A stretch of 64,000 nucleotides of DNA from an uncultured Arcobacteraceae bacterium (GTDB lineage Bacteria > Campylobacterota > Campylobacteria > Campylobacterales > Arcobacteraceae), in the NCBI GenBank assembly GCA_964022095.1, contig CAXHZO010000001.1, forward strand, positions 320,001-384,000, read 5' to 3'. This document shows positions 21,714 through 40,166 of this stretch, piece by piece (position 1 is the first letter of the stretch; each line of letters starts with the position of its first letter). The notes below the pieces were generated by a model. It saw only the letters and a list, made by a program, of their open reading frames with translations, was not told the DNA's origin and did no database searches. The position numbers were made by a program, and so were the translations under genes.

Positions 21714-21721
21714 AAACAAGG

Positions 21722-21749
21722 ATTAAGAAGAGTTTTCTCTTCTTAATTT
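21722..21749 (+). terminator. Terminator-like hairpin after nrfA
   Basis: ATTAAGAAGAG-TTTT-CTCTTCTTAAT then TT. Confidence 0.7.
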
Positions 21750-21832
21750 CTATTATTTGCAAGTAACATCAAAAAAATTACCTCCTTACTATCTCCTTAT
21801 TTGACAATTTGGTGTTACTTGCAAATAATAGA
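21749..21832 (+). ncRNA. Long hairpin with two anti-SD motifs in the loop (element 1)
   Basis: 25-bp stem 21749-21773/21808-21832 with one U-G; 34-nt loop containing ACCTCCTTA and CTCCTT. Confidence 0.6.
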
Positions 21833-21856
21833 CAAAATATTAAAAATGAGATGATT

Positions 21857-24800
21857 ATGAAAAAAATATTTAAAACACTATTTAGCATGGAAGTTATGAC
21901 TGTATTATTAGTCTTTATGGCTTTAGCATGTGCTGTTGCAACTTTTATTGAAAATGATTTTGGCCCACTTGGTTCTAAATCTTTTGTTTATGGCCAAACA
22001 TGGTTTGAAATTATAATGCTTTTACTAACTATTGGTGTAATTTTTAATATCATTTGGTTTAAGATGTATAAACTTAAAAAGTTTTTTATTTTTATGATAC
22101 ATATTTCACTTGTATTTATTTTTATAGGAGCTGCACTTACTAGATATTTAGGATATGAAGCAATTATGACTATTCCTGAAGGTGCAATGGAAAACAAAGT
22201 TTATTCAAGTGATGAGTATATTCAAATAAAAATTGATGATGAGACTTATGATAAAAAAGTTTTAATGACTCCATTGTGGCAATCAAATTTTGATTATGAT
22301 ACAACAATTGACAATAAACCCTTAGAGATAAAATTCAATAGATTTGTTCAAAATGCTGTAGAGAAAATAGTTCCAGCAACAAATGGAAAGCCTTTAATGA
22401 ATATCTTGGTGTCTGAATTTTCAGGAACTAAAAGTTTTGATTTAAAAGACAATAGTCATGTTGACAGTAAATTAATCTCTTTTTCACTAAATAAAAAAAT
22501 AGATACTAAAAAACCAACAGTAAATTTTGAAATAATCAATAATGATTTTTATATTTCATCTAACTTAAAACTAACACAACATACACAAGATATGACTCAA
22601 AAAAGAGATATAAAAGCAAATACAAAAATCAAACTTGATATAGGCTCTATTTTTCAAATAGGGCAAACACATTTTAGAATACCCCAAGCTCAAATAAAAG
22701 GAAATGTGGCAATTGTAAGTGACTTTACAAATGAAATACCAAAAGAGATGCAGTTAAATGCAGTAATTTTAGATGTGACTTACAATAATAATACTATAGA
22801 AGTTCCTTTATATGGTAGAGGTGGTTCAAATAAAGGAATCTCTAGAAATCTAATAATAGCAAATAAGAATATTAACTTTCAATGGGGAACAAAAGAGTTT
22901 ACCCTTCCATTTTCAATTTTATTAAATGACTTCAAATTAGATAGATACCCTGGTTCAATGTCCCCTTCTTCATATTCAAGTGACGTAAAAATATATGATA
23001 AACAAGCAGGAGATTCATTTGAATATAAAATATATATGAACAATGTTCTTGATTATAAAGGATATAGATTCTTTCAATCTTCATATAAAATGGATGAAAG
23101 TGCAACAATTCTTTCAGTTAACAAAGATCCAGGGAAAATTCCTACATATATAGGTTATGCACTTTTATTTACGGGTTTACTATTAAGTTTATTTATTAGT
23201 AATAGTAGATTTAAAAAACTAAGTACAAAAAAATATACAGTTGAAAATATAAAACATACATATTCAATAAAAAAAGCAGCGATAACTTTAATCTTAGGAT
23301 TACTTTTTGTAGTTACTCCACAAGATAGTTTTAGTCAAAATTTAGATGAATCACAAAAGATAATTTTAAATATAGATAAGAATCATAGTGATCAATTAGG
23401 TTCATTGATCATTCAAGACTATCAAGGAAGAATAAAACCTCTTAACTCTTTAGCTATTGAAATTATGAATAAAATTACAAGAAAAAATGAACTTTATGGT
23501 TTAGATGCAAACCAATTTTTTATAAGTATGATTTTATATCCAGAAACTTGGAAGAAGTTAGCTATTTTTAAAGTAAAAAACCCTAAAACTAAAGAGCTTT
23601 TAGATTTAAAACCGCAAAGTAAATACTTTAAATTTAATGATATTTATACAAAATCTGGAGAATATAAACTACAAAATGTTTTAGAAATAGCAAATAATAA
23701 AAAAGCTTCATTAAGAAATAAGTTCGACAAAGAAATTATCAAAATAGATGAAAGACTAAATATAGCTTATGCTTTATATGTTGGGGATTTTTTAAGAGCA
23801 TTCCCTTTAAAAGGTGATAAAAATAATAAATGGCTAAATATAACTGAAGCTACAAGTTATGATAGTACTGAATCAAAATTGATAAATAATATAATCAAAA
23901 AATACTATTTTTCCCTAATCCATGGAACTACAACGAATAACTGGGATAAAGCAAATAATGTTTTAGAAGAGATAAAAGACTTCCAAATGATTTATGCTTC
24001 AAGATTAATTCCAAGTGATTTAAAAATACAAGCAGAACTATTTTTCAATAAATTTAATATATTTGAAAGACTTACTCCATTTTACTTAATATTAGGATTT
24101 GTACTTTTAACCCTTGTATTTATAAATATTTTTAACCCAAAAATTAAAATAACTAAAGTGACAAAAATAACTTTATATTTTCTAATTGTAGCTTTTATTT
24201 TACATACAATTGGTTTAGCTTTAAGATGGTATATTTCAGGTCATGCTCCATGGTCAAATGGATATGAATCTATGATTTATATTGCATGGGCTATTGCTTT
24301 ATCTGGAATATTCTTCTCAAAACATTCTCATCTAGCCCTTGCAACAACTTCTATATTAAGTGGTATTACACTTTTTGTAGCTCACTTAAGCTGGATGGAG
24401 CCACAAATTACAACTTTAGCACCAGTACTTAAATCTTACTGGCTTACTATTCATGTAAGTGTAATTACAGCTAGTTATGGATTTTTAGCACTTAGTGCAC
24501 TTTTAGGATTTATTTCATTATGCTTATTTATCTTTGCAAATCCAAAAAAAGAAAATGATAGATTTTTCAGAATTTTAGTAAGTATTAAAGAATCAAATAG
24601 AATCAATGAAATGTCAATTCTTTTAGGACTTGTATTACTTGTAATTGGAAACTTTTTAGGTGGTATTTGGGCCAATGAATCATGGGGTAGATATTGGGGT
24701 TGGGATCCTAAGGAGACTTGGACTTTAATTTCAATTATCATTTATGCAATTATTCTTCATTTAAAATACATTAAAGATGCTTTTAATGATTATACCTTAA

Positions 24801-24985
24801 GTGTGTTATCTGTAATTAGCTATTTTAGTATTATTATGACTTATTTTGGAGTAAACTATTTTTTAAGTGGTAAACATTCTTATGCAGCTGGGGATCCAAT
24901 ACAAATTCCAACATTTGTATACGTATCAATTATTATCATATTTGCTGTAATTACAATGTCTTTTAAAAATAGAAAAGTGCTTTAA
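21857..24985 (+). CDS. nrfI: Cytochrome c biogenesis system II fusion (CcsBA type), probable NrfA-dedicated heme lyase
   Basis: ResB-like N-terminus; CcsA domain WANESWGRYWGWDPKETW, GKHSYA; follows nrfHA; start could be 21851. Confidence 0.88.
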   Translation: MKKIFKTLFSMEVMTVLLVFMALACAVATFIENDFGPLGSKSFVYGQTWFEIIMLLLTIGVIFNIIWFKMYKLKKFFIFMIHISLVFIFIGAALTRYLGYEAIMTIPEGAMENKVYSSDEYIQIKIDDETYDKKVLMTPLWQSNFDYDTTIDNKPLEIKFNRFVQNAVEKIVPATNGKPLMNILVSEFSGTKSFDLKDNSHVDSKLISFSLNKKIDTKKPTVNFEIINNDFYISSNLKLTQHTQDMTQKRDIKANTKIKLDIGSIFQIGQTHFRIPQAQIKGNVAIVSDFTNEIPKEMQLNAVILDVTYNNNTIEVPLYGRGGSNKGISRNLIIANKNINFQWGTKEFTLPFSILLNDFKLDRYPGSMSPSSYSSDVKIYDKQAGDSFEYKIYMNNVLDYKGYRFFQSSYKMDESATILSVNKDPGKIPTYIGYALLFTGLLLSLFISNSRFKKLSTKKYTVENIKHTYSIKKAAITLILGLLFVVTPQDSFSQNLDESQKIILNIDKNHSDQLGSLIIQDYQGRIKPLNSLAIEIMNKITRKNELYGLDANQFFISMILYPETWKKLAIFKVKNPKTKELLDLKPQSKYFKFNDIYTKSGEYKLQNVLEIANNKKASLRNKFDKEIIKIDERLNIAYALYVGDFLRAFPLKGDKNNKWLNITEATSYDSTESKLINNIIKKYYFSLIHGTTTNNWDKANNVLEEIKDFQMIYASRLIPSDLKIQAELFFNKFNIFERLTPFYLILGFVLLTLVFINIFNPKIKITKVTKITLYFLIVAFILHTIGLALRWYISGHAPWSNGYESMIYIAWAIALSGIFFSKHSHLALATTSILSGITLFVAHLSWMEPQITTLAPVLKSYWLTIHVSVITASYGFLALSALLGFISLCLFIFANPKKENDRFFRILVSIKESNRINEMSILLGLVLLVIGNFLGGIWANESWGRYWGWDPKETWTLISIIIYAIILHLKYIKDAFNDYTLSVLSVISYFSIIMTYFGVNYFLSGKHSYAAGDPIQIPTFVYVSIIIIFAVITMSFKNRKVL

Positions 24986-25113
24986 AAGAATATTTTATTA
25001 CTAATATCTATTTTTAAACTTAAAACTGTAAGTATGTTTAAAAACTAATCAAAAAAATTAAGATATTTTTTATAAAGATAGCATTAACATAGCAATTTTT
25101 AAGTTTATACAGG

Positions 25114-25119
25114 TATAAT
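25114..25119 (+). promoter_or_regulatory. Sigma70 -10 box with no downstream + strand CDS
   Basis: TATAAT preceded by an AT-rich tract; next CDS is the convergent phoD. Confidence 0.55.
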
Positions 25120-25124
25120 TTTAC

Positions 25125-25268
25125 TAAATAAGAAGTTTTATCATTATCTCTCCTTAGTAAATATTACATATGTAATTATTTCAGATGGAACTTCCTTATT
25201 TATTTACTTCTTAATTAAATTTAGTCATACAAGGAAATGTAGTGGGTACATCTCCTTGTATTTTTTTT
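25125..25268 (+). ncRNA. Candidate ~140-nt sRNA: long hairpin with anti-SD loop (element 2) plus terminator
   Basis: Stem 25125-25142/25184-25202 with two U-G and one bulge; loop CTCTCCTT; hairpin 25227-25261 followed by T8. Confidence 0.6.
25227..25268 (+). terminator. Intrinsic terminator on the + strand
   Basis: ATACAAGGA-A-ATGTA/TACAT-C-TCCTTGTAT stem followed by a run of T. Confidence 0.75.
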
Positions 25269-25280
25269 GCCTAAAATTTC

Positions 25281-27029
25281 CTAGATAGTTTCTAAAGTAT
25301 TATTTCCAGCAGTAGATTTTAAAGACATTTGTCTTGTAGTATCCATTGTATATGTAGTTGAATCAGTATTATTTAAATAGTGCCAAGTCGTATTTACCTC
25401 ATCATTAGTAAATGTAACTTCCATAAATCCTCTTTGATTAAAATTCGCATATAATAAATCATCAATTAATGTTGTAATCGCATATTCAAATTGCATCGAA
25501 GCTTGCATTGTAGGTAAACCTACACTTTGTTCAAATCCTGGAGAACTAATAGAAGTTGTAGCAAACTCCACTCCTACATTATTCCCAGAATTATCTTTTA
25601 AGTTATTTGCCCAAGAGTTATGTGTATCCCCTGAAAGAACAACTAAGTTTTTACCATAAGCAGCGGCTGTTCCTAAAATCACTTCTCTTTCATAGAAATA
25701 TCCATCCCATGCATCTAAATTATATGGTAAAAGTGTAGTTAATCTTACATTTGTAGGATCTGTTAATTTCAGTGTCACAAGTTCAGTAATAGTAGCGTTT
25801 AATTGAGTTAAAACTGCAACTTTTTGCTCGGCATTTAAAGCTGCATCAAGTTGAGAAATCAATACTAATAATTCTGCTGGTAAAAACATTTTACCCATTA
25901 GAACTTGTTGTCCTAAAACCTGCCATTTTGTATTTGATGATACAAGTTTTGTTTGAAGCCATGTTAATTGTTCACTGCCTAACATAGTTCTTGTATCATT
26001 TGTTAAATCAGCAGAAAATGAAGCTGAATCAAAATTCCCTAAGTTATCATAATAGTTGATATAGCTTAATTGTTTGTCTCTTCCTATAACTCTAGTATCA
26101 AGCATATATAAACTTACTAAATCACCAAACTCGAAGTTTCTGTATATTGTTTCATTATCATTTTTATCAAATGGTCTTATTGGAAGCCATTCAAAATATG
26201 CCTGAAGTGCAGCTAATTTTCTATCTTCAAAATCACCTTCAGTGTCATTATGATTTTCTGCTCCATCTTTATATGTATCATTTGCTACTTCATGATCATC
26301 CCAAACAGTTATAAATGGCACACTTTTATGTAAAGCTACTGAGCCTTCATCTGTATGGTATAAAGCATATCTATTTCTATAGTCTTCTAAAGTCAAACAT
26401 TCTGTATCATTACTACTTGGTAATACTCTTCCAATAGTTGAAGCATTTTGAGTAGCATATGCAGGTGTTATACCATCTGATTCAAACATACCATACTCAT
26501 AAATGTAATCACCTAAATGTACAACAACATCTAAATCTTCAATTTTTGATGCTTCCATATATGAGTTAAAATAACCATTTGTATAATTTGCACATGAGAA
26601 TACTGCCATTTTAACTTGACTTGGATTTGATGAAATTGTTTTTGTTTTACCTACTATTGAGATTTTATCATTTGATTTAAATCTATAGTAATAAACTGTG
26701 TTTTCTTCTAGATTTTGTAAATCAATTTTTACTGTATAATCTTGATCTTTTTTAGTAGTTATTTCTCCAGAGTGAGTAAGAGTAGTAAAGTTACTATCTT
26801 TTGATACTTCATATCCTAATCTTAAAATATTAAGTTCTTTTTGTGGAGTCAATCTAGTCCATATGATTAATTTATCAGTAAGAGGATCACCACTAGCAAC
26901 TCCATGTTTAAAATCAACATCTGTAGGGTTCCAAATATTTGCACAGCCACTAAGTCCTGTTGATACAACTAATGAGCAAGCTGTTAGTGCAGAAATTTTT
27001 ATAAAATCTCTTCTAGAAAGTTTTAACAT
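25281..27029 (-). CDS. phoD: PhoD-family alkaline phosphatase, Tat-exported, probable lipoprotein
   Basis: SRRDFIK, LSGC lipobox, FKHGVASGDP, HLGDYIYE, WDDHE, NLDAWDGY, SGDTH. Confidence 0.93.
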   Translation of the reverse strand: MLKLSRRDFIKISALTACSLVVSTGLSGCANIWNPTDVDFKHGVASGDPLTDKLIIWTRLTPQKELNILRLGYEVSKDSNFTTLTHSGEITTKKDQDYTVKIDLQNLEENTVYYYRFKSNDKISIVGKTKTISSNPSQVKMAVFSCANYTNGYFNSYMEASKIEDLDVVVHLGDYIYEYGMFESDGITPAYATQNASTIGRVLPSSNDTECLTLEDYRNRYALYHTDEGSVALHKSVPFITVWDDHEVANDTYKDGAENHNDTEGDFEDRKLAALQAYFEWLPIRPFDKNDNETIYRNFEFGDLVSLYMLDTRVIGRDKQLSYINYYDNLGNFDSASFSADLTNDTRTMLGSEQLTWLQTKLVSSNTKWQVLGQQVLMGKMFLPAELLVLISQLDAALNAEQKVAVLTQLNATITELVTLKLTDPTNVRLTTLLPYNLDAWDGYFYEREVILGTAAAYGKNLVVLSGDTHNSWANNLKDNSGNNVGVEFATTSISSPGFEQSVGLPTMQASMQFEYAITTLIDDLLYANFNQRGFMEVTFTNDEVNTTWHYLNNTDSTTYTMDTTRQMSLKSTAGNNTLETI

Positions 27030-27110
27030 ATTATTACCTTATAATTTTTTAATAATAATATAATAAATTTTATTACAAAATAGCCTCAAAGGAGTTAAAC
27101 CCCTTTGAAA

Positions 27111-28349
27111 TTACATATATTTTTTAAGAACTTCTGGAATTGCTACAGTTCCATCTGCTTGTTGATAGTTTTCCATAATTGCAACTAATGTTCTTCCAAC
27201 TGCTAGTGAAGATCCATTTAAAGTATGAGCAAGAATATTTTTCTTTCCATCTTTATATCTGATTTTAGCACGTCTTGCTTGGAATTCTTTAGTATTTGAA
27301 ATTGAGCTTATTTCTCTAAATTTATTTTGTCCAGGAAGCCATACTTCTAAATCAATTGTAGTTGCTGCACTAAATCCAAGGTCACCAGTACATAATTGAA
27401 CTTTTTGGTGAGCAAGTCCTAAAGAAGTTAATAAATCACTAGCACAAGCAACCATTTTTTCAAATACTTCAGCTGATTGCTCTTGTTTTGTAATAGCAAC
27501 CATTTCAACTTTGTCAAATTGGTGTTGTCTTATTAATCCTCTTGTATCACGTCCTGCACTTCCTGCTTCTTTTCTAAAACAAGGAGTATAAGAAGTTAAC
27601 ATTAAAGGTAATTCTTCAGAGGGAACAATTTCGTCATTATAAAGATTTGTTAAACTAACTTCAGCAGTAGGAATTAAGTATAAATCTTCACCTTCAATTT
27701 TAAATAAATCATCTTCAAATTTTGGTAATTGTCCAGTTCCCTGAAGTGTATTTGAGTTTGCCATAAATGGAACATACCACTCTTCAAAACCTCTTTGTCT
27801 ATTAAAGTCAAGCATATAATTAATAAGTGCTCGCTCTAATCTTGCACCTTGACCTTTAATAGCTGAGAATCTAGATTTTGCTAGCTTAACTCCTCTTTCA
27901 AAGTCTAACCAACCATTAGGTAAATCCCAATGCTCTTTTGGTTCAAAATCAAATGTTGGCTTTTCACCAATAGTTTCTAAAACAACATTTTCATCTTCAT
28001 CAGCACCATCTGGTACATTTTCATCTGGTAAATTTGGAACACCTAAAGCAAGAGAAGTTAGCTCATCTTCAATAACTCTTACTTCATCTTCCATTGTTTG
28101 TTTATTGTATTTTAATTCATTTATTTCAGCTTGAAGAGAAGCAATATCTAAGCCCTCTTTTTTATATCTTCCAAACTCTTTTGATAATTTATTTTGCTGT
28201 GCAGTGATATCTTCCATCTCTTGTCTTTTTGCTTTTGCAGTAAATGAGATGTTTTGTAGATTATCAAGAATATCTTGTGATACGCCTTTTCTTTTTAAAG
28301 CGCTTGCAGTTGTTTCAAAGTCTTTTTGTAGTTGTTTTATATCAATCAT
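27111..28349 (-). CDS. serS: Serine--tRNA ligase
   Basis: [34 protein letters not shown]. Confidence 0.98.
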
Positions 28350-28420
28350 TCTAAACTCTTTGTACTTATTTTTTGTGGCATTATAGCTAAAAAAATCTAC
28401 AAAGAGATTAGATGAAAAAT

Positions 28421-28627
28421 TTATCCGTTCATTTCCATTTTTATAATAACTTCATCATTTATATATTCAGCTTTAAATTTATGTTTGTGACAGAAGTCTT
28501 CATTCATTGCCATACACATTTCTTGTGCTTTTTGTAATGCTTCATCTACTGTTTCAAATTGTGTTTCAGCTTCAAAATCAGAATTTCTAAAACATCCACA
28601 TTGTCTTTCAACTTTTACAATTGTCAT
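28421..28627 (-). CDS. Small Cys/His-rich hypothetical protein
   Basis: 68 aa with CGC, C and FCHKH; AGGAG RBS. Confidence 0.8.
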
Positions 28628-28773
28628 AATATCTATCTCCTATAATTTTTTTCGAAATTGTAGCATAAACTTTTTACAATATCTTTTATAAATCAATAAT
28701 TAATAGTTATCAAATTGATAAACTAGTAATATATCTTATGACAAATAACAAAAAATTTTATGAAAGAATATAT

Positions 28774-30051
28774 ATGAAATACAAATTTTTAACAGTTTCT
28801 ATTCCTATTTTGATTTTTATTATCGCATCTTTTTACATTACAGCACAGTTTATAAAACCAAGCCCAAAAAAGGAGATTACAATTGCAACGGGTTCAAAAT
28901 CTGGTCAATATTATCAAACTGCACTAAAATATAAAGAGCTTTTAGAAAAAGAGAAAGTTACAGTAAATATCATAAATACAAGTGGTTCTATTGAAAACTT
29001 AGAGCTAATTCAAGAAAACAAAGCAGATATTGCTTTTGTTCAAAATGGCAGTGTAAAAGATACTAAAGATATTGAAGCATTAGCTTCTGTTTATAATGAA
29101 CCTTTATGGATTTTTTTTAATAACAATATAGAAAAAACAAACTATATAAAAGATTTTGTTGGTAAGAAAATCTCAATTGGGGCTTTTAAAAGTGGAACTG
29201 AAGATTTGAGTTTAGAAGTTTTAAACACAAATGGACTTGATAATTCAAATACTGAATTTGTAAACCTAGATTCAACACAAGCAAAACAATCACTTCTAAA
29301 TGGAGATATAGATGCTATCTTTTTAGTAACATCTGCAAATAATACAATAATAAAAGAATTACTTTTAGAAAAAGATATTTCGCTTTTTTCATTTAGAAGA
29401 GCAAATGCTTATGGCAAAAAGTTTAATTACTTAAATGCTGTGAATCTTCATGAAGGAACTATAAACCTTCATAAAAATTTACCAAATGAAGATAAAAAAC
29501 TATTAGCAACATCAGCTTTACTAATAGCTCATAAAGATTTTTCAGATGAATTAATTAGAATCTTACTTAAAAAAGTAAAAGAAGTACACGCTCCTAAAAG
29601 TATGTTCTCACAAGCAGGTGAATTTCCAACAAAATTTGGAATAACAATTTCTATGAATGAAGAAGCTGACAGATACCTAACATATGGCGATACTTGGTTA
29701 GAGAAGATCTTTCCATATTGGATAGCTTCAAACCTAGATAGATTAAAAATTTTACTAATTCCATTATTAACTTTAATGATTCCTATTTTTAAAGGAGTAT
29801 TTCCTTTATATAGATGGAGTATTAGATCTAAAATTTATAGATGGTATGATGAGCTTCAAGAGCTAGATTTATCTTTAGATGGATTACAAAAAGATGAAAT
29901 GCTTAAAAAAATCGAAGAACTTGAAGTACTAAAAAAAGAGATAAAAGATGAAACAAAAGTTCCATTAGCATATATGGGTGAATATTATGATCTTATTATG
30001 CATATAGAATTAATCATCTCAAAGGCAAATATACGAATTCACGGTGAGTAA
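28774..30051 (+). CDS. TAXI-family TRAP solute-binding protein with C-terminal TM extension
   Basis: ITIATG..G.YY, TSGSIENL, YNEPLW; second TM near the C-terminus. Confidence 0.85.
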   Translation: MKYKFLTVSIPILIFIIASFYITAQFIKPSPKKEITIATGSKSGQYYQTALKYKELLEKEKVTVNIINTSGSIENLELIQENKADIAFVQNGSVKDTKDIEALASVYNEPLWIFFNNNIEKTNYIKDFVGKKISIGAFKSGTEDLSLEVLNTNGLDNSNTEFVNLDSTQAKQSLLNGDIDAIFLVTSANNTIIKELLLEKDISLFSFRRANAYGKKFNYLNAVNLHEGTINLHKNLPNEDKKLLATSALLIAHKDFSDELIRILLKKVKEVHAPKSMFSQAGEFPTKFGITISMNEEADRYLTYGDTWLEKIFPYWIASNLDRLKILLIPLLTLMIPIFKGVFPLYRWSIRSKIYRWYDELQELDLSLDGLQKDEMLKKIEELEVLKKEIKDETKVPLAYMGEYYDLIMHIELIISKANIRIHGE

Positions 30052-30100
30052 TTTTAGCTACTTTTGATATAATATCACCAAAAAATATAAGGACTTTGAT

Positions 30101-31066
30101 TTGAGAATTTTATCAGGTATTCAACCATCAGGAACTATTCATATCGGAAACTATTTTGGTATGGTAAAAAAGATGATTGAATCACAAGATCAGGGTGAAT
30201 TATTTGCATTTATTGCATCTTATCATGCCCTAACTTCAGTAAAAGAAAAAGAGGTTTTAGAGCAAAACACTTTTGAAGCAGCAGTAAACTTTCTAGCACT
30301 TGGAATGGACCCAGAAAAATCTACATTTTGGGTACAGCATCATGTAAAAGAGGTTTTAGAGCTTTACTGGATATTATCAAATCATACTTCTATGGGGCTT
30401 TTAGAAAGAGCTCACTCATACAAAGATAAAACTGCAAAGGGTATTCAAGCAAATCATGGATTGTTTTCATACCCTGTTTTAATGGCAGCAGATATCTTAC
30501 TATTTGATTCAAATATCGTTCCAGTTGGAAAAGACCAAATCCAACACGTAGAGATGACAAGAGATATTGCAAATAGCTTTAATCATCACTACAACACAGA
30601 TATTTTAGTTTTACCTGAAGCGAAGGTTGATGAAGTGGTTGCAACAGTTCCAGGAACTGATGGTGCAAAAATGTCAAAATCGTATAACAACACTATTGAT
30701 ATGTTCAACACTAAGAAAAAAATCAAAAAGCAAGTTATGGGAATAGTAACTGATTCAAAAGAACTTGATGAGCCAAAAGAGTGGGAAAACTGTAATGTAT
30801 ATAAGCTTTGTGAACTATTTATGAACGAAGATGAATTAAAAGAGTTACAACAAAGATATGCAACTCCAGGTGAAGGTTATGGACACTTTAAATTAAGTTT
30901 ATTTGATAAAATCAATGAACATTTTGAACCATACGCTCAAAAAAGAGAGCACTACTTAAACAATCCAAAAGAAGTACATGAAATCTTAGCACATGGTGCA
31001 AGTAAAGCTAAAAAAATAGCTGCTGCTAAAATGGAAGTTATTAGAGATACTGTGGGGTTGATTTAG
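30101..31066 (+). CDS. trpS: Tryptophan--tRNA ligase
   Basis: SGIQPSG.IHIGN, YPVLMAADIL, VPVGKDQ, KMSKS; TTG start; TGATATAAT at 30065-30073. Confidence 0.98.
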   Translation: MRILSGIQPSGTIHIGNYFGMVKKMIESQDQGELFAFIASYHALTSVKEKEVLEQNTFEAAVNFLALGMDPEKSTFWVQHHVKEVLELYWILSNHTSMGLLERAHSYKDKTAKGIQANHGLFSYPVLMAADILLFDSNIVPVGKDQIQHVEMTRDIANSFNHHYNTDILVLPEAKVDEVVATVPGTDGAKMSKSYNNTIDMFNTKKKIKKQVMGIVTDSKELDEPKEWENCNVYKLCELFMNEDELKELQQRYATPGEGYGHFKLSLFDKINEHFEPYAQKREHYLNNPKEVHEILAHGASKAKKIAAAKMEVIRDTVGLI

Positions 31067-31068
31067 TT

Positions 31069-31101
31069 AAAATATAAAAGAGACTTTCTCTTTTATATTT
31101 A
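31069..31101. terminator. Bidirectional terminator-like hairpin after trpS
   Basis: AAATATAAAAGAGA..TCTCTTTTATATTT inverted repeat. Confidence 0.7.
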
Positions 31102-31395
31102 TTTATATTTTTTCCAATCAGATGAATAAAACATTCTAATACTTAATATAGTATATAGAAGACAAATAAATATAATATACTCAAATGATAATTCAAATAC
31201 ACTGTAAAAAAATAATGATGGATATATTATTCCAGAAAAAACAATAGCAATTATTTGTGAATAAAGTAACTCTTGCCAAAAAAGTTTAATCTTAAAAATA
31301 TGTGGGAATAATATTCAAAAAAATAATCCTCCTATATAAGAAGGTATTAAAAATATCAAAATCCATATAAATAAAGACAATTCATTATAACTCAT
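31099..31395 (-). pseudogene. 98-codon membrane-protein ORF interrupted by an in-frame TGA
   Basis: MSYNELSLFIWILIFLIPSYIGGLFF*ILFPHIFKIKLFWQELLYSQIIAIVFSGIIYPSLFFYSVFELSFEYIIFICLLYTILSIRMFYSSDWKKYK*; TGA at 31317-31315. Confidence 0.55.
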
Positions 31396-31469
31396 AAAAT
31401 ACTCTTATTTTTAAGATATACAAAGAATACAATAAATTTTATAAGATTATTATTTAGTAAGATTGATAT

Positions 31470-32162
31470 TTATTTCTTACAAACAAATATCAATTTGTCA
31501 GCATCTTCATCACTATGAAGGTTAAAGTCTCTTATTTCTTTTACTTCAAAACCACATTTTTTAAGTACTTTTTCTAAATACTGTTTTGAGTGATACTCTT
31601 GAGTAATACTATCACTCTCTTTTGTAAAAGTTCCATTATCATTTTGTGTAAATAGCGTGAAATCTGTTTGTAGTTTTTCTTCATCAAAGTTTGCATCAAT
31701 ACCTATAAATCTATTTTCTAAATCTATATTAATACACCCTTGAGCAACCATATCAAAACCAAAGTATGAATTAACATCAAATACAAAGTATCCATCAGTA
31801 TTTAAAACCTCATATGTTTCTTTGATAAAATTTTCTAAGTCATTTTTTGAAATATAGTTTAATACATCAAAAATTGCAGTCGCACAATCAAATTTTTGAT
31901 TAACTTCATTTAGTGGTATAGCTTTTGCGTCTAAGCCTTTTTCTTGACAAACTTTTATTTGCTCAATACTTAGGTCCGTTCCAAAAGCTTTTTTGTCATT
32001 TATTTTAAGATTCTCTAAAAAGTACCCTTGTCCACATCCAATATCAATGATATTATCAAGTTCATTTACCATCACAAACTCCATAAACTGTTTGTGTAGT
32101 GAGTAAACCTCATCCTCGAAATCTAAATATGGCTCTATTTTAGAGTATAAATCTAATCCCAT
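31470..32162 (-). CDS. Class I SAM-dependent methyltransferase
   Basis: IIDIGCGQG motif I, FDVLNY, GYFVFDVN. Confidence 0.9.
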   Translation of the reverse strand: MGLDLYSKIEPYLDFEDEVYSLHKQFMEFVMVNELDNIIDIGCGQGYFLENLKINDKKAFGTDLSIEQIKVCQEKGLDAKAIPLNEVNQKFDCATAIFDVLNYISKNDLENFIKETYEVLNTDGYFVFDVNSYFGFDMVAQGCINIDLENRFIGIDANFDEEKLQTDFTLFTQNDNGTFTKESDSITQEYHSKQYLEKVLKKCGFEVKEIRDFNLHSDEDADKLIFVCKK

Positions 32163-32770
32163 TATAAAGTAGCTTCTATCTTTTCTTTTAAATCTAAGAT
32201 TAAATCTTTTTTAGCATAAAATGAGTTTTTATTAGATATTAATTGAGCACTACTTTCCATAATTGTAGGCCCTACTTCAAGACCGTTTTGTTTCATTGTT
32301 TCACCAGTTTCAACAATATCAATAATACAATCAGAAAGGCCAACTAAAGGTGCAAGTTCAATCGATCCATAAAGTTTAATAATCTCAACTGCCATTGCTT
32401 TTTGCTCAAAATATTTTTTAGCAATCTTCTCATGTTTTGTAGCAACAGTGATTTTACTTTTAGTCATATCAAGTTTTTCACCTTTTCTAAGACCAAAAGC
32501 AACTTTACATTTTCCTAATTGCAAATTTAAAAGTTTGATTAAGTCATACTCTTTTTCTTCAAGCACATCTTGTCCTACAACTCCTAGGTCTGCTGCTCCA
32601 TGCATTACATATGTTGGTACATCTTGGTTTCTTACATTTAAAAATCTAAAACCACTTTTTTCTAAAATTAGTTTTCTGTTTTCAAATACAAATTTTTCGC
32701 CAAAGGCTTTCTCAAATTTATCTAAAGTCTCTTCAGCGATTCTACCCTTTGGTAATGCAATCGTTAGCAT
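32162..32770 (-). CDS. hisG: ATP phosphoribosyltransferase, short form
   Basis: LTIALPKGR, GSIELAPLVGLSD.IIDIVETG.T. Confidence 0.95.
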   Translation of the reverse strand: MLTIALPKGRIAEETLDKFEKAFGEKFVFENRKLILEKSGFRFLNVRNQDVPTYVMHGAADLGVVGQDVLEEKEYDLIKLLNLQLGKCKVAFGLRKGEKLDMTKSKITVATKHEKIAKKYFEQKAMAVEIIKLYGSIELAPLVGLSDCIIDIVETGETMKQNGLEVGPTIMESSAQLISNKNSFYAKKDLILDLKEKIEATL

Positions 32771-33374
32771 CAATAATCCTTTTCATGTTCTCAAATATTA
32801 AATCTTTTTTATATATACTATTTTTAAAATACTTATTTAACATCTTTCCATCACCACCGGTGAAGATAATATTTCTATTTTCACTCACTTCTTTTATAGG
32901 TAAAATGATAGATTTCATTATGGCGTATGTAATAGCATCTTTTGTTTGAAGCGGTATTTTATCTAAATTTATTTTTTTTTCAAAATCAAATTTTAGTTTT
33001 TTTGAGATTTTTGGATAAGTTTTCATAAATGCCCTAAATCCAGGCAATATAAACCCACCTTTGTGTTTTGAATTTTCCATAATATCAACAGTAATTGCAC
33101 TTCCAGCATCAACTATCACTGCATCTTTTTCAAAATAACTCCCTATTGCTCTATCTATTCCAAGCCCTACGTATTTTGTTTTAAAATCCATTAGTTTTTT
33201 AATATTTTTTGCTTGGGGATTAATTTGTTTTAATTTTTTTGATGCAGTTTTATTTACTGATACAAAATATAAGTCATCTTCAAACTTTGGCAATTTTTCA
33301 TCTAAAAAATATACTTTATGTTTTCCATTTATAAAAAAGTGGTAAGTACTATTACCAATATCACATAAAATCAA
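32742..33374 (-). CDS. coaX: Type III pantothenate kinase
   Basis: CDIGNS, GLGIDR, VDAGSAITVD, GGFILPG, TGGDG. Confidence 0.93.
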   Translation of the reverse strand: MILCDIGNSTYHFFINGKHKVYFLDEKLPKFEDDLYFVSVNKTASKKLKQINPQAKNIKKLMDFKTKYVGLGIDRAIGSYFEKDAVIVDAGSAITVDIMENSKHKGGFILPGFRAFMKTYPKISKKLKFDFEKKINLDKIPLQTKDAITYAIMKSIILPIKEVSENRNIIFTGGDGKMLNKYFKNSIYKKDLIFENMKRIIDANDCITKG

Positions 33375-33693
33375 CTCTTACACTCCAACCATTTTCTTTT
33401 AAAAATGCTTTTGCTTTACTACACAGTGGACTTGAAACTAGTAACTCTTTTTTCTTAAAATTATGATCTTCAAAATCTGCTAATTTTCCACAAAGTTCTA
33501 TTAAATCATTAGCATTTTTTCTAATAAATCTACTTTTAGCATCAACTATAAAAATTGCATAGTAGTTCTTTTCTATACTAGTAGCACTATAAATACCTAT
33601 TTTTTTTCTACTTCCCAATTCTTTTGGTGTAACTTCTTTAATATCTTTAAATAATATATTTTTATCATTAAAATATTTTGTTAAATCTTTCAA
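33361..33693 (-). CDS. Hypothetical protein
   Basis: 110-aa ORF overlapping coaX, TTG start. Confidence 0.75.
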   Translation of the reverse strand: MKDLTKYFNDKNILFKDIKEVTPKELGSRKKIGIYSATSIEKNYYAIFIVDAKSRFIRKNANDLIELCGKLADFEDHNFKKKELLVSSPLCSKAKAFLKENGWSVRVDFM

Positions 33694-33819
33694 AACTTTC
33701 CTTTATTAATCGCAATTATAACTAAATTAGACTTTTTCATAGATTCAATGAAAATATCATAAGTTTGACACACTTATTTAGATATAATAATATTAAATTA
33801 ATATAAATAATAAAGTAAA

Positions 33820-34593
33820 ATGCAAGAAATAACCTACAAAGAACAATCAAAAATAACAAGATCAATAATCAAAGCAGCAGTACTTATGTTAGAGTTTGGT
33901 GCAGAAAGTATACTAATAGAGCAAACTGCCCAAAGATTAGGGAAAGCCTTAGGAGTTGATTCTGTTGAAGTATCTTTAATTCCATCAGCAATAGTTTTAA
34001 CTACACTTTATGATGGACAATCAGCAACTACAACTAGAAGTGTTCACCATAAACCAATTAACATGTCAATAGTTTGTGATGTACAACAAATGGTAATTGA
34101 AGTAGAAAAAAATAAATATGATTCATCATGGGTTACAACTCACATGAAAGAGATTCAACCAAACTATTATAATAGATGGATTGTAATACTTATGGTAGGA
34201 CTTGCTTGTGCATCATTTTCTTATCTTTATGGAGCTGATATTTGGGCATTTGCCATCACTTTTATAAGTGCTTGTATTGCAATGTTTATTAGACAAGAAC
34301 TTACAAAAAAAAGATTTATGATGATTATTACCTTTGGGATAACTGCATTTATAGCAACCCTACTTTCTAGTATATCTTTACTTTTTAATTTAACTTCAAC
34401 ACCTAATGTAGTTTTTGCAGCAAGTGTACTTTTACTTGTTCCTGGATTTCCCTTTGTAACATCATTTTTAGATGGATTCAAAGGTTATTTAAGTATGGCT
34501 TGGGGAAGATGGCTTCAAGCTTCACTTCTTACTATCGCTACTTGTATGGGTATCGTTTTAGCCCTTTCTGTATTAAATATAAAAGGGTGGTAA
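33820..34593 (+). CDS. ThrE/YjjP family exporter subunit
   Basis: LEFGAES, VLLLVPGFP motif, C-terminal TMs. Confidence 0.88.
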   Translation: MQEITYKEQSKITRSIIKAAVLMLEFGAESILIEQTAQRLGKALGVDSVEVSLIPSAIVLTTLYDGQSATTTRSVHHKPINMSIVCDVQQMVIEVEKNKYDSSWVTTHMKEIQPNYYNRWIVILMVGLACASFSYLYGADIWAFAITFISACIAMFIRQELTKKRFMMIITFGITAFIATLLSSISLLFNLTSTPNVVFAASVLLLVPGFPFVTSFLDGFKGYLSMAWGRWLQASLLTIATCMGIVLALSVLNIKGW

Positions 34594-35057
34594 TGAGTAT
34601 TTTAGATATTTTTATAAATTCAATGTTTGCTTCAATTGCATCAACTGGATTTGCAATGCTTTTTAATGTACCAAAACATGCTTTAGGATTTTGTGCATTT
34701 GGTGGAGCTATTACTTATCTTATAAAAGATACAGGAATGGATTTTGGATTATCAATTGAACTTTCAACTTTTATTGCTTCAACTTTTATTGGTATTATTG
34801 CTTTAAGATGGTCAAAAAAGTTTTTAATTCCAAGACCAGTTTATACTGTTGCATCAATTATTCCTATGATACCTGGAACTTATGCCTTTACAGCAATGAT
34901 AACTTTAGTTGATATGAACTCACATGGAGTAACACCTGAATTAATTACAATCTTTGTAGAAAATGCATTAAAAGCTATATCAATTTTAGGAGCAATTAGT
35001 TTTGGTTTGGCCTTAACTTCATTATATTATTTAAGATTAAACAGGCCAGTTATTTAA
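34593..35057 (+). CDS. YjjB/ThrE_2 family exporter subunit
   Basis: GFAMLFNVP, IIPMIPG; TAATG coupling to the upstream gene. Confidence 0.88.
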   Translation: MSILDIFINSMFASIASTGFAMLFNVPKHALGFCAFGGAITYLIKDTGMDFGLSIELSTFIASTFIGIIALRWSKKFLIPRPVYTVASIIPMIPGTYAFTAMITLVDMNSHGVTPELITIFVENALKAISILGAISFGLALTSLYYLRLNRPVI

Positions 35058-35059
35058 AT

Positions 35060-36016
35060 CTAGTCTGATTTAACAAGAAAATAAAGCCCAGTAAAAGTAA
35101 CTGCGATTCCAATAATTCCTATACTATTTGGGAATAATCCACTTAAAAATATTACTTCAGCAAAAAGAGTAAATATTACTTCTAAAGATTGTGCAGAATC
35201 AACAACCATAATCTTTGTTGAAGTATTTGCTTTATTTCTTGCATATAAAAAAAGTGAAGTTGCAAAAACCCCTGAAAATAAAGAAATTATTGCAATATTA
35301 GATACTTGATAAACAGTAACAGGAGCTTTTTCAGCAAAGAAAAAAAGTACAATCCATAAAGGAGTACTTCCAAGTACTAATAAAAAAGCTTTTACTAAGC
35401 CATTATTTAAAATATCAAGATTTTCGCCTTTTTCAATTCGTTTTTTCTTCTTTTCCCAAACTAATTGATTACCAAAAGGATAACAAAAAGCAGCTATTAA
35501 AACAGGGAAAAAGCCTAATATAAAAGCGTCTAAATTATCAAAATCAAAGTGACTAAAGTTTACCAATGTAACCCCAGAAAAAATTAAAACACTATAAATC
35601 CAAATTTTCTTACTTAGTTTTTGTCCAAATATCCATAAAACAAAAAGTGAGCAGATAATAGTGATTTGCCAAGTTGTGGCAATAATCCATCCAGGAGAGT
35701 AATCAGCTGAGTAGCAAAGTAAAAAATAGAAAAAACCAAAACCAATAGTTCCAGCAATAAGCCAAAACTTTAAATTTGAGAAGAATTCATTTATAACAGA
35801 TTTATAATATTTGAAACCATTAAATACAATAATAAAAATACTTAAAAAAAGAACGGTAAAAACATATCTAATACTAGCAGCCCAATACCAAGAGATTCCA
35901 TCTAAAGAGTTAGCTCTATTTAATGCAAAAGTAAAACTAAAAAAAAGTGCTGCTAAAATCCCAACAAAAAGTAAGAAAACTGTATTTTGATTATATTTTT
36001 CTAAAAATAGTTTCAT
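35060..36016 (-). CDS. DMT superfamily putative efflux transporter (YjlA-like)
   Basis: FFSFTFALNR, GTIGFGFFY, YPFGNQL; about 10 TMs. Confidence 0.82.
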   Translation of the reverse strand: MKLFLEKYNQNTVFLLFVGILAALFFSFTFALNRANSLDGISWYWAASIRYVFTVLFLSIFIIVFNGFKYYKSVINEFFSNLKFWLIAGTIGFGFFYFLLCYSADYSPGWIIATTWQITIICSLFVLWIFGQKLSKKIWIYSVLIFSGVTLVNFSHFDFDNLDAFILGFFPVLIAAFCYPFGNQLVWEKKKKRIEKGENLDILNNGLVKAFLLVLGSTPLWIVLFFFAEKAPVTVYQVSNIAIISLFSGVFATSLFLYARNKANTSTKIMVVDSAQSLEVIFTLFAEVIFLSGLFPNSIGIIGIAVTFTGLYFLVKSD

Positions 36017-36085
36017 GAATGATTCCTTTGGGCGCAATTATAATTAAAAAGTATTAATATTATTTAAAGTAAAGAGTAAAGAGTT

Positions 36086-36169
36086 TTATACACTAGTGAA
36101 CAGGCATACATTTGAAGTATTGACAAGGAGTTGGGTTGTAGGAAAGTATACCTGCTCACTAATATATAA
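36086..36169 (-). ncRNA. Long hairpin with anti-SD loop (element 3), just past the porin terminator
   Basis: 24-bp stem 36086-36109/36146-36169; all four mismatches are G-U on the - strand; 36-nt loop with ACTCCTT. Confidence 0.6.
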
Positions 36170-36172
36170 TCT

Positions 36173-36194
36173 AAAAAAGGCCGAAGCCTTTTTT
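36173..36194 (-). terminator. Intrinsic terminator of the porin gene
   Basis: - strand AAAAAAGGC-TTCG-GCCTTTTTT with a C(UUCG)G tetraloop. Confidence 0.85.
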
Positions 36195-36199
36195 ATTGA

Positions 36200-37363
36200 T
36201 TAGAATTTATATGAAACATATAATCTTGATCTATAACTTTCAGTATCAATATTATCGTAAGTCGCTAATACAAATTTTGTAGATAAGTTCTCATTAAATT
36301 TGTAATTTGCAATATAATCTGTTTCAGATTTTCTTTCATCACTTCCTGTTTTCCATGCTGCATATATTAAGTTTAATGATAAATCACTATTAACTGCATA
36401 TCCAGCAGATAATTTATACGCATCAGTGTCAGCAGAATAAACTCCACCATAAATATCAGACCATGTGTAAAGGTAATCTGCACCATTCCCTAATCCTGCA
36501 ACTACATCACCTTCATCATCAATTGTAGAGTATGCTGCACCTAAAGATAATGCATCAAAATTAGCTGTTAAATTAACTGCATATGCTTTACCATCAGAGT
36601 CAGTAGCTTCACCATTATCAGTTTGGAATGTTTGTGCTTCAATAGTAAATGGATTTAAGTTATAAGCTGCTGCTGCATAAAATGCTTTTACATCATCACC
36701 AGTTGATGACATCTCATTAATTTGTGCATATTGAGCTTCTAAAGTTAAATTTTCAACAGAGTTATTTTTAACATATAATGTATATGCTCCATCTGCAACT
36801 TGCTCAAATCCAGATACTGCTTTTACATCACTTCCACCAGAAGCTACATCAGTTCTATATTGATATTTGTCAACATATGCTGCAACTAATGTTGTATTTG
36901 GTAAATCAGTATTAGCTAAAACAACACCCTCAAAAGATTCTCTAAAAATTCTAGAACCAGATCCAGCTACTAATGGAGTAGAAATAAATTGTCTACCAAC
37001 TTTAACAGATGTATTACCAGTAGCGTATCCTAAATATACTTGAGATGCAACAGCACCTGAAACATTTTGGTCACTATTGTATGCAGTTGGTGCATCATCT
37101 AAATCATCAGCAGTTACAGTTGCTGCTTGAAAAGTTACTCCTGCATTAAAACCATAAAATGAACCAGTTTCATAAGATAAGTTTCCACCATTAGTCCAAA
37201 TACTTACTTTTTTATCTGATACTTCTTTTTGGAAATATTGAGATTTAATCTCTCCACTTACTTTACCTTCTGCAAATGCTTCTGATAAAGTATCTGCACT
37301 GAACGCTTGAGTTGAGATTAGAGCTAATGTAGCTACTAAACTTAATTTTTTGATTTTTTTCAT
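36200..37363 (-). CDS. Outer membrane porin (OprD/MOMP-like)
   Basis: Signal peptide ending AFSA, VKVGRQ...TPL, terminal RLYVSYKF. Confidence 0.88.
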   Translation of the reverse strand: MKKIKKLSLVATLALISTQAFSADTLSEAFAEGKVSGEIKSQYFQKEVSDKKVSIWTNGGNLSYETGSFYGFNAGVTFQAATVTADDLDDAPTAYNSDQNVSGAVASQVYLGYATGNTSVKVGRQFISTPLVAGSGSRIFRESFEGVVLANTDLPNTTLVAAYVDKYQYRTDVASGGSDVKAVSGFEQVADGAYTLYVKNNSVENLTLEAQYAQINEMSSTGDDVKAFYAAAAYNLNPFTIEAQTFQTDNGEATDSDGKAYAVNLTANFDALSLGAAYSTIDDEGDVVAGLGNGADYLYTWSDIYGGVYSADTDAYKLSAGYAVNSDLSLNLIYAAWKTGSDERKSETDYIANYKFNENLSTKFVLATYDNIDTESYRSRLYVSYKF

Positions 37364-37436
37364 GTTTATCCTTTTTTTACAAATGACAAAAACAATTAAA
37401 GAAATTTATACTTAATTGTTTCAACAAAACTTTCCT

Positions 37437-37526
37437 AATATTCACTGGTCAATAGGCATAACTGTTTTAATATTTGGGAGAACAAATGATTTTATAGCAT
37501 GCTTCTCCTACTCACCAATAAATACT
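37437..37526 (-). ncRNA. Long hairpin with UUCUCCC loop (element 4)
   Basis: Arms 37437-37456/37507-37526; G-U pairs only on the - strand, one G/G mismatch; GGGAG on + at 37476-37480. Confidence 0.45.
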
Positions 37527-37539
37527 TCTCTTTTTTAAT

Positions 37540-39237: not shown

Positions 39238-39299
39238 TTTTAATCCTAGTTTATTTTATATAAAATCATATCAATAAAAAGTGTCTAAAAAGTAGTCAT

Positions 39300-40166
39300 T
39301 TAAAAACTATTAATTAAACCTGCAATTACGACACAAAAAAGACCTACTATATAAGCTGTTTGAAGAGGTTCATTAAAAAACATGATCAAGTAAACAGCTG
39401 ATATAATGGGCGTTAAAAATATAAATGGTGCTAAAAAAGATGCTTGAGTTAACCTCAATGCATTTATCCAAAATAGATATGAAAACCCATTAATTAAAAC
39501 ACCATTTAATACTACTGGTAAAAGTTCATTTGTTGTTGGTAATAAAAAAGAAGAAAAGTAGTTCATTGAAAAAAATGAAGCCACTGTAGCACTTAAAAAA
39601 TATATACTAATTGCACTAATTGGTTCATACTTAACTTTTTTTCCTAAAATAGAAAAAAGAGCAAAAGAGCTTGCACCTAAAAATACTAAAAAGATTACAT
39701 AAGGATTATCTAAATAAACTTTAGAAAAATCACCTTTTGTTAAAACAAAAATTACACCAATAAAACCAATAATAATTGATAATACTTTTTGTAAAGTTAA
39801 TTTCTCATTTAAAACTAATAAAGATAAAAAAACTATAGATATAGGCCATGTATATTGTATAACTAAAACCTCTAAACCTTTAGCTTCTTTATATCCTAAA
39901 TACAAAAAAAGATAGTATATATATGTTCCAAGTAAACCTAAAACAATTAATATAAGCCAATCTTTTAGTTTGTACTGTTTAAAAATTGCTATTTTCTTTT
40001 TTATTAATGCTGTACTAAACAAGCAAATAAACGATATCAAACTAGACCAAAACAAAAATTGATGATTATCCATATTTACTTGTGCAAGTTTTGCAACTAC
40101 AGGAATCATAGCCCATAAAATCACACAAATAAATACTAATAAAATTGCTTTTGTTCTATTTGACAA
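39300..40166 (-). CDS. EamA/DMT family transporter
   Basis: About 10 TMs, IQYTWP, duplicated EamA pattern. Confidence 0.88.
   Translation of the reverse strand: MSNRTKAILLVFICVILWAMIPVVAKLAQVNMDNHQFLFWSSLISFICLFSTALIKKKIAIFKQYKLKDWLILIVLGLLGTYIYYLFLYLGYKEAKGLEVLVIQYTWPISIVFLSLLVLNEKLTLQKVLSIIIGFIGVIFVLTKGDFSKVYLDNPYVIFLVFLGASSFALFSILGKKVKYEPISAISIYFLSATVASFFSMNYFSSFLLPTTNELLPVVLNGVLINGFSYLFWINALRLTQASFLAPFIFLTPIISAVYLIMFFNEPLQTAYIVGLFCVVIAGLINSF

Follow-up and report, generated by a model that had tools for sequence, protein, structure and literature searches.

In the low-GC genomes of Firmicutes, RsaE/RoxS and the UCCC-motif Rsa RNAs direct several C-rich single-stranded seeds against Shine-Dalgarno (SD) sequences, with RsaE/RoxS targeting redox functions. 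For Campylobacterota, what is known of post-transcriptional control comes from a handful of studied Helicobacter and Campylobacter small RNAs (sRNAs). Helicobacter pylori RepG is reported as an sRNA of this phylum with a C/U-rich loop (PMC8295292), Campylobacter jejuni CJnc190 is matured by ribonuclease III (RNase III) through an intramolecular duplex (PMC8687705), and in Staphylococcus aureus a UCCCCUG anti-SD motif in the icaR 3′ untranslated region (3′-UTR) pairs with the SD region of its own mRNA, creating an RNase III substrate (PMC3868564). Here we describe four intergenic hairpins with C/U-rich loops, elements 1 to 4 (el1-el4), in a 64,000-nucleotide (nt) stretch of DNA ('the window', C1:320001-384000) from an uncultured Arcobacteraceae bacterium whose genome assembly comprises 2.57 Mb in 31 contigs at 28% G+C, or ~14% each of C and G.

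On the evidence of folding, covariation and homology searches, the four hairpins are conserved RNA structures under RNA-level selection, with conserved loop motifs and a consistent position in the genome, drawn from two uncatalogued Arcobacteraceae families that we call Family A (el3, el4 and probably el1) and Family B (el2). Both families have covariation support, clear boundaries and a conserved candidate seed, and one has a conserved promoter motif. The proposal that selection acts on the RNA rather than on the DNA was borne out in both, by covariation and by the G-U wobbles that have been kept.

Presence, folding and rank of the four hairpins

The original prediction had treated the four inverted repeats as a single class of long-stem RNA hairpins with CUCC in the loop and with stem mismatches that read as G-U pairs on the loop-bearing strand. 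The hairpins, their coordinates, the strand bias and the loop motif all stand, while the single class and a genome-wide enrichment of CUCC do not. All four repeats are present where they had been placed (Table 1), each with CUCC in the loop on the named strand. RNA folding gave -30.8 kcal/mol for el1 (z -9.5; other strand -28.9), whose arms are 96% complementary, and -15.8 kcal/mol for el2 (z -2.6; other strand -11.4). For el3, with a 24-bp stem and a 36-nt loop, the values were -32.4 kcal/mol (z -8.2; other strand -20.0), and for el4, with 13+6 bp around a 50-nt interior, -24.4 kcal/mol (z -3.3; other strand -13.8). Since every element folds worse on its other strand, the claimed G-U asymmetry is real. 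Two elements had been described as lying beside intrinsic terminators, and el1 and el3 indeed begin 0-3 nt from one.

As hairpins, three of the four are exceptional in this genome. A gap-free stem scan (20-70-nt loop) found 13 genomic stems with scores of at least 44, where three local shuffles of the genome gave 0, 0 and 1, and placed el1 second and el3 fifth in the whole genome. RNALfold, run on 1197 intergenic regions, yielded 1092 hairpin loci, among which el3 ranked 1, el1 6 and el4 10, so that three of the ten strongest intergenic hairpins in the genome fall within 16 kb; these ranks are approximate, as the parser missed the + strand of el1 and scored it on its wrong strand. By the same scan el2 is unremarkable as a hairpin (rank 88).

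The expected enrichment of CUCC in long hairpins across the genome did not appear. The motif occurs in 8 of the 100 top hairpin loci, three of these being el2-el4, and the remaining 5 of 97 are in line with the intergenic background, in which CTCC is found in 4.5% and CTCCTT in 0.6% of 40-nt windows. Neither the covariance models described below (R1, R2) nor the top 100 intergenic hairpin loci revealed a further class member in this genome. A dispersed family, as had been proposed, is seen among relatives, where long hairpins stand behind unrelated genes, and not within this genome, which holds nothing beyond the four.

Homology divides the elements where the original prediction had seen one class without shared sequence. 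Model R1, built from el2, misses el3 and el4 and gives el1 only 15.4-16.7 bits, and model R2, built from el3 and el4, misses el2; because the two do not cross-match, we rejected one family for all four elements in favour of two separate homologous families. The statement that no stem sequence is shared also fails, because el3 and el4 are homologous and their alignment with nine relatives (11 sequences) has 20 invariant columns.

That the elements are uncatalogued was confirmed for Rfam 15, which at gathering thresholds gave no match in the whole window and in E-value mode over 21500-37700 gave sub-threshold chance matches only, such as mir-802 on el1 (30.6 bits vs a gathering threshold of 86). 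Literature searches for sRNAs of Arcobacter or Aliarcobacter brought up no paper that describes any, and none on these RNAs. As far as its accessible text goes, the survey of Arcobacter sp. L by Stav et al. (2019; PMC6429828) left Arcobacter-confined candidates unnamed, and an overlap of one of them with Family A or B is possible.

Family A: homology, covariation and distribution

Family A is a hairpin of ~95 nt with a 24-bp stem, represented by el3, el4 and 20 relatives from other genomes and metagenomes. Relatives were drawn from genome and metagenome contigs with similarity to the porin gene and, under strict filters, from 150 other genomes sampled from the family Arcobacteraceae, themselves part of a larger group. 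The conserved stem, UA.UA.UGGUGAGUAGG / CCUA.UCACCAGUG.AUA, follows an open reading frame (ORF) in sense orientation, and both el3 and el4 carry it.

Covariation supports the stem at three levels of sampling. Across el4 and the seven syntenic loci, compensatory changes affect 5 of 20 pairs, a number matched by 3 of 500 shuffles. In the 11-sequence alignment from which R2 was built, both sides change in 9 of the 24 pairs, which none of 500 shuffles equalled. The widest set, a MAFFT alignment of 22 distinct Family A members plus el1 (23 sequences), has its 24 pairs formed in 90.3% of cases vs 29-48% when the partners are slid, and both-side changes in 15 of 24 pairs (58 cells); no shuffle out of 500 reached any of five measures, and a chance origin of the stem was rejected on the same count. 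Certain wobbles are fixed, with U-G in 17 of the 23 sequences and G-U at another position in 13 of 23, which on the opposite strand would be A-C mismatches. At every Family A locus the sense strand outscores the antisense strand, for example by 99.9 vs 57.2 bits and 69.6 vs 19.6 bits.

The scores of el3 and el4 themselves (Table 1) are not independent, as both are training sequences of R2. Independent members come from 12 of the 150 other family genomes, with 1-2 loci each at 36.6-99.9 bits, and fall in four genera: 2 of 11 sampled genomes of genus g7, 3 of 22 of g11, 3 of 8 of g18 and 4 of 21 of g20. Outside the family, 25 other families of the order were sampled with 140 genomes, and R2 matched in none of them.

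Within the window, el3 and el4 flank the porin gene as homologues, the el4 record starting 8 nt past the Glu_synthase-domain stop codon, on the upstream side of the porin gene. The position of el4 is conserved, and a long hairpin follows directly on the Glu_synthase-domain stop codon in 7 of the 7 loci where that gene precedes the porin. A homologue of el3 stands behind a more distant porin relative (locus L106), and aligns with the el4 group. We also asked how far the arrangement extends: el4 is not a general 3′ feature of Glu_synthase-domain genes, as seven more distant loci lack the hairpin, and no el4-type hairpin precedes porin homologues without that neighbour in 13 of 15 loci, the other two being short contigs with the same arrangement.

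The genes upstream of Family A members, in sense orientation, are otherwise unrelated. They encode Glu_synthase-domain proteins, methyl-accepting chemotaxis proteins, a histidine kinase, a DUF5718 protein, aldehyde dehydrogenases, porins and, for el1, NrfA. In 16 of 21 members the R2 match begins no more than 30 nt past the nearest upstream long open frame or stop codon, and at two loci (L156, L157) the next gene is convergent, which assigns the element to the upstream gene. The hairpins are not intrinsic terminators themselves: their loops are 31-51 nt long, no T-run follows the stems, and a terminator pattern scan lists only the true terminators adjacent to them.

The interior of the hairpin is rich in C (24.9%) and poor in G (8.1%). 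As had been predicted for the loop, a C/U-rich motif is conserved, usually as CUCCUU or CCUCUUU. Of 22 members, 17 have CUCC or CCUC, 11 have the full CUCCUU, and two contain none of the five C-rich words that we counted. By reading, the motif of many members is preceded by a small inner hairpin whose loop contains CCCC. Separately, a long hairpin with a UUCUCCUUAAU loop lies past the terminator of a distant porin homologue (L111:3651-3732) and has no R2 match at E <=0.01. It is of the same design without detectable homology, which hints at convergent evolution of the design.

Family B: el2 and its promoter

The -10 box and terminator that had been ascribed to one element belong to el2, in which a TATAAT box stands six bases ahead of the stem and a hairpin with eight T was identified by reading. 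Taken together with its homologues, these features indicate that el2 is an sRNA gene in its own right, which stands alone between a promoter that has been conserved and a terminator of its own. The core of the loop (CUCUCCUUAG / CTCTCCTTAG), in the interior of the 13-bp stem, is invariant in 28 of 28 aligned homologues. The segment 25040-25275 is 87% identical to a sequence in a genome of the same genus (G001), at a different genomic place, and ~73% identical to sequences in G003 and G024, where it is also downstream of the haem-lyase gene. At E <=2.1e-8, homologues of el2 were found in 40 of the 150 other family genomes, comprising all sampled genomes of four genera (1/1, 6/6, 11/11 and 22/22) and none from the other 18 sampled genera of the family.

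In its own genome R1 finds el2 alone, at 62.6 bits (a training sequence), the next match having 28.5 bits. Versions from g11 outside the training set score 43.7-53.2 bits, and el2 shows the features that define Family B membership. Across 150 genomes of the order, R1 matched five g11 genomes and one weak outlier, with no match in 24 of the 25 other families. In a MAFFT alignment of 21 sequences, 8 of the 13 closing-stem pairs vary on one side only, mostly through G-U. A model-fitted alignment of 32 distinct sequences has the stem paired in 97.1% of cases and both-side changes in five pairs (18 cells), a count matched by none of 500 shuffles, in an alignment that leans towards the model.

Two side observations concern R1 matches. 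Two g7 genomes have a second, tandem copy of the el2 type ~220 nt from the first (L079:1718-1805 and L080:1706-1792, both on the minus strand; 47.7-49.1 bits). A weak match in the window, 58379-58484 (+), has UUAUCUCUUCUU where the loop would be and is probably due to chance (21.9 bits, E 0.027).

The direct repeat TAGCA-N6-TAGCA of the el2 promoter occurs at 13 sites in the genome, 11 of them intergenic, vs 4.3 expected, and looks like the site of an activator of the response-regulator type. Apart from 25079-25094, the sites are at 49492 (-) in the window and at C1:126899, 169904, 172176, 176915, 293868 and 307397, C3:123424, C11:9362, C14:35698, C15:54924 and C18:21998. A gene on the same strand begins or lies within 400 nt of only four sites, and these genes include those for a cytochrome c and for NuoA (NADH dehydrogenase chain 3), and some of the sites may drive other non-coding RNAs.

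Assignment of el1

The element between nrfA and nrfI, el1, is tentatively placed in Family A as a probable diverged member. Its R2 score for the sense strand is 35.4 bits (filters off; E 3.3e-5 for the window), compared with 23.4 bits for the antisense strand. As controls we took the next strongest long hairpins of the genome, 16 in number, none of which exceeds 19.9 bits on either strand. Like el3, el1 is placed directly after a terminator, and its loop contains two copies of CUCCUUA, for a hexamer whose background frequency is the 0.6% given above. The loop also contains ACCUCCUUA, which we take to be the sequence of the 16S rRNA 3′ end; a 12-nt motif did not find the 16S 3′ end in this assembly.

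It is also a serious possibility that el1 alone is unrelated to Family A and is a species-specific inverted repeat around the nrfI promoter, its CUCC motifs being coincidental. The best promoter-like match of the region, TTGACA-17-AATAAT, spans the element, with its -35 in the loop and its -10 in the 3′ arm, and is a possible nrfI promoter on the strength of its near-consensus sequence; the region has 18 sites of this kind, fewer than its shuffles (mean 30.3). In its inner half the el1 stem is unlike Family A, and the sequence-only profile (nhmmer) missed el1. The syntenic spacer between nrfA and the haem-lyase gene holds no orthologue in three relatives: G003 and G024 lack a hairpin of this kind there, and the one in G020 is different and AT-only. 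Against this explanation stand the score above all 16 controls, the shared position relative to a terminator and the repeated CUCCUUA. We retain probable membership of Family A.

Proposed function and competing explanations

We favour, with a probability of about 0.5, the reading that two unrelated RNA families each expose a pyrimidine motif that pairs in trans with ribosome-binding sites (RBSs). The pairing is inferred from motif complementarity: ahead of its start codons this genome most often has the hexamers AAAGGA, AAGGAA and AAGGAT, with UCCUU and CUCCUU as complements, and the exposed motif would complement the SD sequence AAGGA/AAGGAG. By pairing with the RBSs of mRNAs the motif would lower their translation. 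In Family A, RNase III would cut the long stem and free the loop-bearing hairpin from the upstream mRNA, a step that we favour because of the 24-bp stems and of the CJnc190 precedent (PMC8687705). In Family B, the motif would be delivered by a stand-alone sRNA transcribed from a regulated promoter and ended by its own terminator.

Predicted duplexes agree with this for el2. Of 2530 start regions, 334 are predicted to form a duplex of <=-12 kcal/mol with its loop, vs 41-207 for 20 shuffled loops. Its best partner, the start region of the pyrroloquinoline quinone (PQQ) dehydrogenase at C1:294824-296710, reaches -25.2 kcal/mol vs shuffled minima of -16.6 to -22.4. The top predicted partners include two PQQ dehydrogenases and c-type cytochromes, which we regard as a lead only.

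Several observations weigh against pairing in trans by both families. The target lists for el2 carry little information, because a complement to the generic SD sequence predicts hundreds of targets, and gene starts in the pairing tests came from a rough ORF caller of our own. Loops of Family A pair with the start regions of the adjacent upstream and downstream genes no better than with average genes, the duplex-energy fractions among 2531 start regions being 0.30 for el1 with nrfA, 0.72 for el3 with the porin gene and 0.62 for el4 with the Glu_synthase-domain gene; because of these values, self-pairing of the icaR kind, or a block of the downstream gene's RBS, is not supported. Five of 22 Family A members have neither CUCC nor CCUC. 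By reading, 5 of 21 members, and el1 as well, stand behind an intrinsic terminator, a position that would restrict their co-transcription with the gene ahead of them. Neither the same-genus genome G001 nor four other close relatives yielded a Family A member. No RNA run was found for 29500-39400, and contigs from two small-share RNA runs, compared with 21000-38000, matched fragments of relatives' genes such as the porin gene and covered none of the elements. In addition, el1 has the two weaknesses already noted, its absence from the nhmmer search and from the syntenic spacers.

The main rival of trans pairing, though an unlikely one in our estimate, is a role of Family A in cis at the 3′ end of the upstream mRNA, where the hairpin would block exonucleases, insulate against read-through or load Rho on a C-rich, G-poor loop, with CUCC as a by-product of a need for C. 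This would suit elements that are sense-oriented and immediately 3′ of stop codons or terminators, that are followed in some members by terminator-like hairpins (by reading), and that at L156 and L157 lie in a convergent pair without a downstream gene; it would also suit the excess of C over G in the loops, where the genome has equal shares. A simple exonuclease block, however, does not need the stem sequence itself to be conserved beyond its pairing, as it is here, and no U-tract follows the hairpins. Rho sites are longer and unstructured, whereas these loops of 31-51 nt are closed by a stem, and one specific hexamer, CUCCUU, recurs in half of the members (11 of 22).

A bolder form of the trans-pairing reading strikes us as more doubtful still. 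Family A would be a modular regulatory RNA cassette attached to the 3′ ends of unrelated genes and long retained there, its RNase III-released hairpins mimicking the anti-SD tail of 16S rRNA, and Family B would be its signal-regulated counterpart. If so, transcribing one gene, for instance the porin gene or nrfA, would titrate or repress strong RBSs elsewhere, and otherwise unlinked genes would be coupled through information encoded at a 3′ end.

We consider it improbable that the loops serve to bind a protein, for example by acting as decoys that draw off a factor specific for C-rich RNA or for the 16S 3′ pyrimidine tail, with the stem as a docking helix. Conservation of the stem sequence and of its wobble positions would be explained, as would the ACCUCCUUA in the el1 loop and the negative outcome of the cis-pairing tests, but no candidate protein gene is linked in any context seen, and the 16S 3′ end is unconfirmed in this assembly.

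Repetitive extragenic palindromes (REPs) and REPINs are extragenic hairpins made of two inverted arms of ~25 nt and a spacer, often at gene 3′ ends, and are associated with RAYT transposases. That the elements represent palindromic DNA of a mobile or selfish nature, of this type or of the miniature inverted-repeat transposable element (MITE) type, or a DNA-level site (cruciform, operator or recombination site) flanking the porin gene, is very improbable: the extragenic hairpin-and-spacer form, the two direct copies around the porin gene, the patchy occurrence among genera, the single Y1 transposase gene of the genome and a GTAG in the stem are outweighed by elements that are single-copy, with strongly diverged copies within genomes, by the lack of an R2 hairpin near the Y1_Tnp gene, by orthologous copies with compensatory changes at the same site across genera, by conserved G-U pairs that would be A-C mismatches on the other strand, and by the absence, on reading, of attC-type ends (RYYYAAC / GTTRRRY). 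REPs and REPINs are multi-copy and these elements are not; the latter have no link to Y1_Tnp, and their loop motif and G-U wobbles are conserved on one strand.

Named identities of this kind were also rejected individually. As had been supposed, the elements are not MITE or REP copies, each finding only itself in the genome at E <0.01 (blastn-short). For REPIN/RAYT, the sole PF01797 match is at C4:16395-16724, and R2 scores no higher than 13.7 bits anywhere within 1.5 kb of it. Integron attC sites were set aside on the lack of RYYYAAC/GTTRRRY cores at the hairpin ends and on flanks of housekeeping type in conserved synteny, intI not having been searched for. Small ORFs on the antisense strand, where by reading AAGGAG is followed by frames of only 8-9, 1 and 3 codons, are inconsistent among the elements, and the G-U pairs favour the other strand.

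Genomic setting of the elements

Coordinates of the elements and of the features around them are collected in Table 1. On the plus strand the order is nrfA, el1, the haem-lyase gene and el2, followed by the convergent PhoD gene; the 1042-residue product of the haem-lyase gene reads, by its domains, as a CcsBA/NrfI-type haem lyase (nrfI). On the minus strand the order is the Glu_synthase-domain gene, el4, the porin gene, its terminator, el3 and the EamA/EmrE transporter gene.

Table 1. Elements, associated signals and neighbouring genes, in window coordinates
Feature	Position	Strand	Evidence and remarks
nrfA (cytochrome c552)	20223-21713	+	Pfam
Intrinsic terminator of nrfA	21720-21749	+	Terminator pattern scan; directly before el1
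el1	21749-21832	+	25-bp hairpin, 34-nt loop with CCUCCUUA and UCUCCUUA; between nrfA and nrfI
Promoter-like TTGACA-17-AATAAT	21801-21829	+	11/12 matches; consensus match only
ResB + Cytochrom_C_asm protein, 1042 aa	21857-24985	+	Pfam
el2 promoter (putative)	25079-25119	+	Direct repeat TAGCA-N6-TAGCA 25079-25094 and TATAAT 25114-25119; conserved in aligned homologues
el2 (model R1)	25124-25207 (hairpin 25125-25202)	+	13-bp conserved closing stem; loop motif UAUCUCUCCUUAGU at 25145-25158; R1 62.6 bits
Terminator-like hairpin and eight T, predicted end of el2 transcript	25229-25268	+	By reading; conserved in G001; not listed by pattern scan
PhoD phosphatase	25281-27029	-	Pfam; convergent with haem-lyase gene
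EamA/EmrE transporter	35060-36016	-	Pfam
el3	36081-36175 (hairpin 36086-36169)	-	R2 67.3 bits; directly past porin terminator; homologous to el4
Intrinsic terminator of porin gene	36172-36195	-	Terminator pattern scan
OprD-like porin	36200-37363	-	Pfam
el4	37433-37531 (hairpin 37437-37526)	-	R2 69.5 bits; covariation; orthologues at all 7 syntenic loci examined
Glu_synthase-domain gene	37540-39237	-	Pfam

The Glu_synthase-domain protein is 82-87% identical to copies from g11 and g18 that have the same arrangement of hairpin and porin (L144-L146, compared with window 35060-39237), and ~70% identical to the copy in the same-genus G001, which is without that arrangement. These identities suggest paralogy, or else that the block was exchanged between genera. 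The porin homologue of G001 (L038:1444-2615) consists of two adjacent open frames, 1444-2322 and 2358-2615, and may be a frameshifted or split gene.

Elsewhere in the genome, the long hairpins at C10:57894-57978, C12:8637-8718 and C12:8697-8779 have a common arm, TATTTAGTATATAARCTAAA, and form a small repeat family unrelated to el1-el4. The two longest imperfect inverted repeats, C2:36474-36579 and C9:26553-26701, are intergenic; they have loops of 23-24 nt, enclosed by 41 and 63 stacked pairs respectively.

Comparison with known systems

RsaE/RoxS resembles el2 in its redox-enzyme partners, which for el2 are only predicted, and differs in phylum and in the lack of homology. RepG and CJnc190 come from the same bacterial class as el1-el4, a class that to our knowledge lacks Hfq. 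The long stems described here would allow processing of a duplex by RNase III as reported for CJnc190. Neither sRNA has sequence or model homology to the elements, and the Rfam scans were empty. Unlike both, Family A is not a stand-alone gene but is found behind unrelated ORFs, has a 24-bp stem whose sequence is conserved, and can coexist in several diverged copies.

The icaR 3′-UTR offers a parallel in design, in that a C-rich, SD-complementary motif is located in the 3′ region of a gene (UCCCCUG there, CUCCUU here). It differs from Family A in its self-pairing, which here is predicted to be no better than pairing with average genes, and in that the module here is homologous from copy to copy and follows many unrelated genes. 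Should the long hairpins prove to be 3′-derived anti-SD regulators, the single example of icaR would be extended to a homologous, dispersed module.

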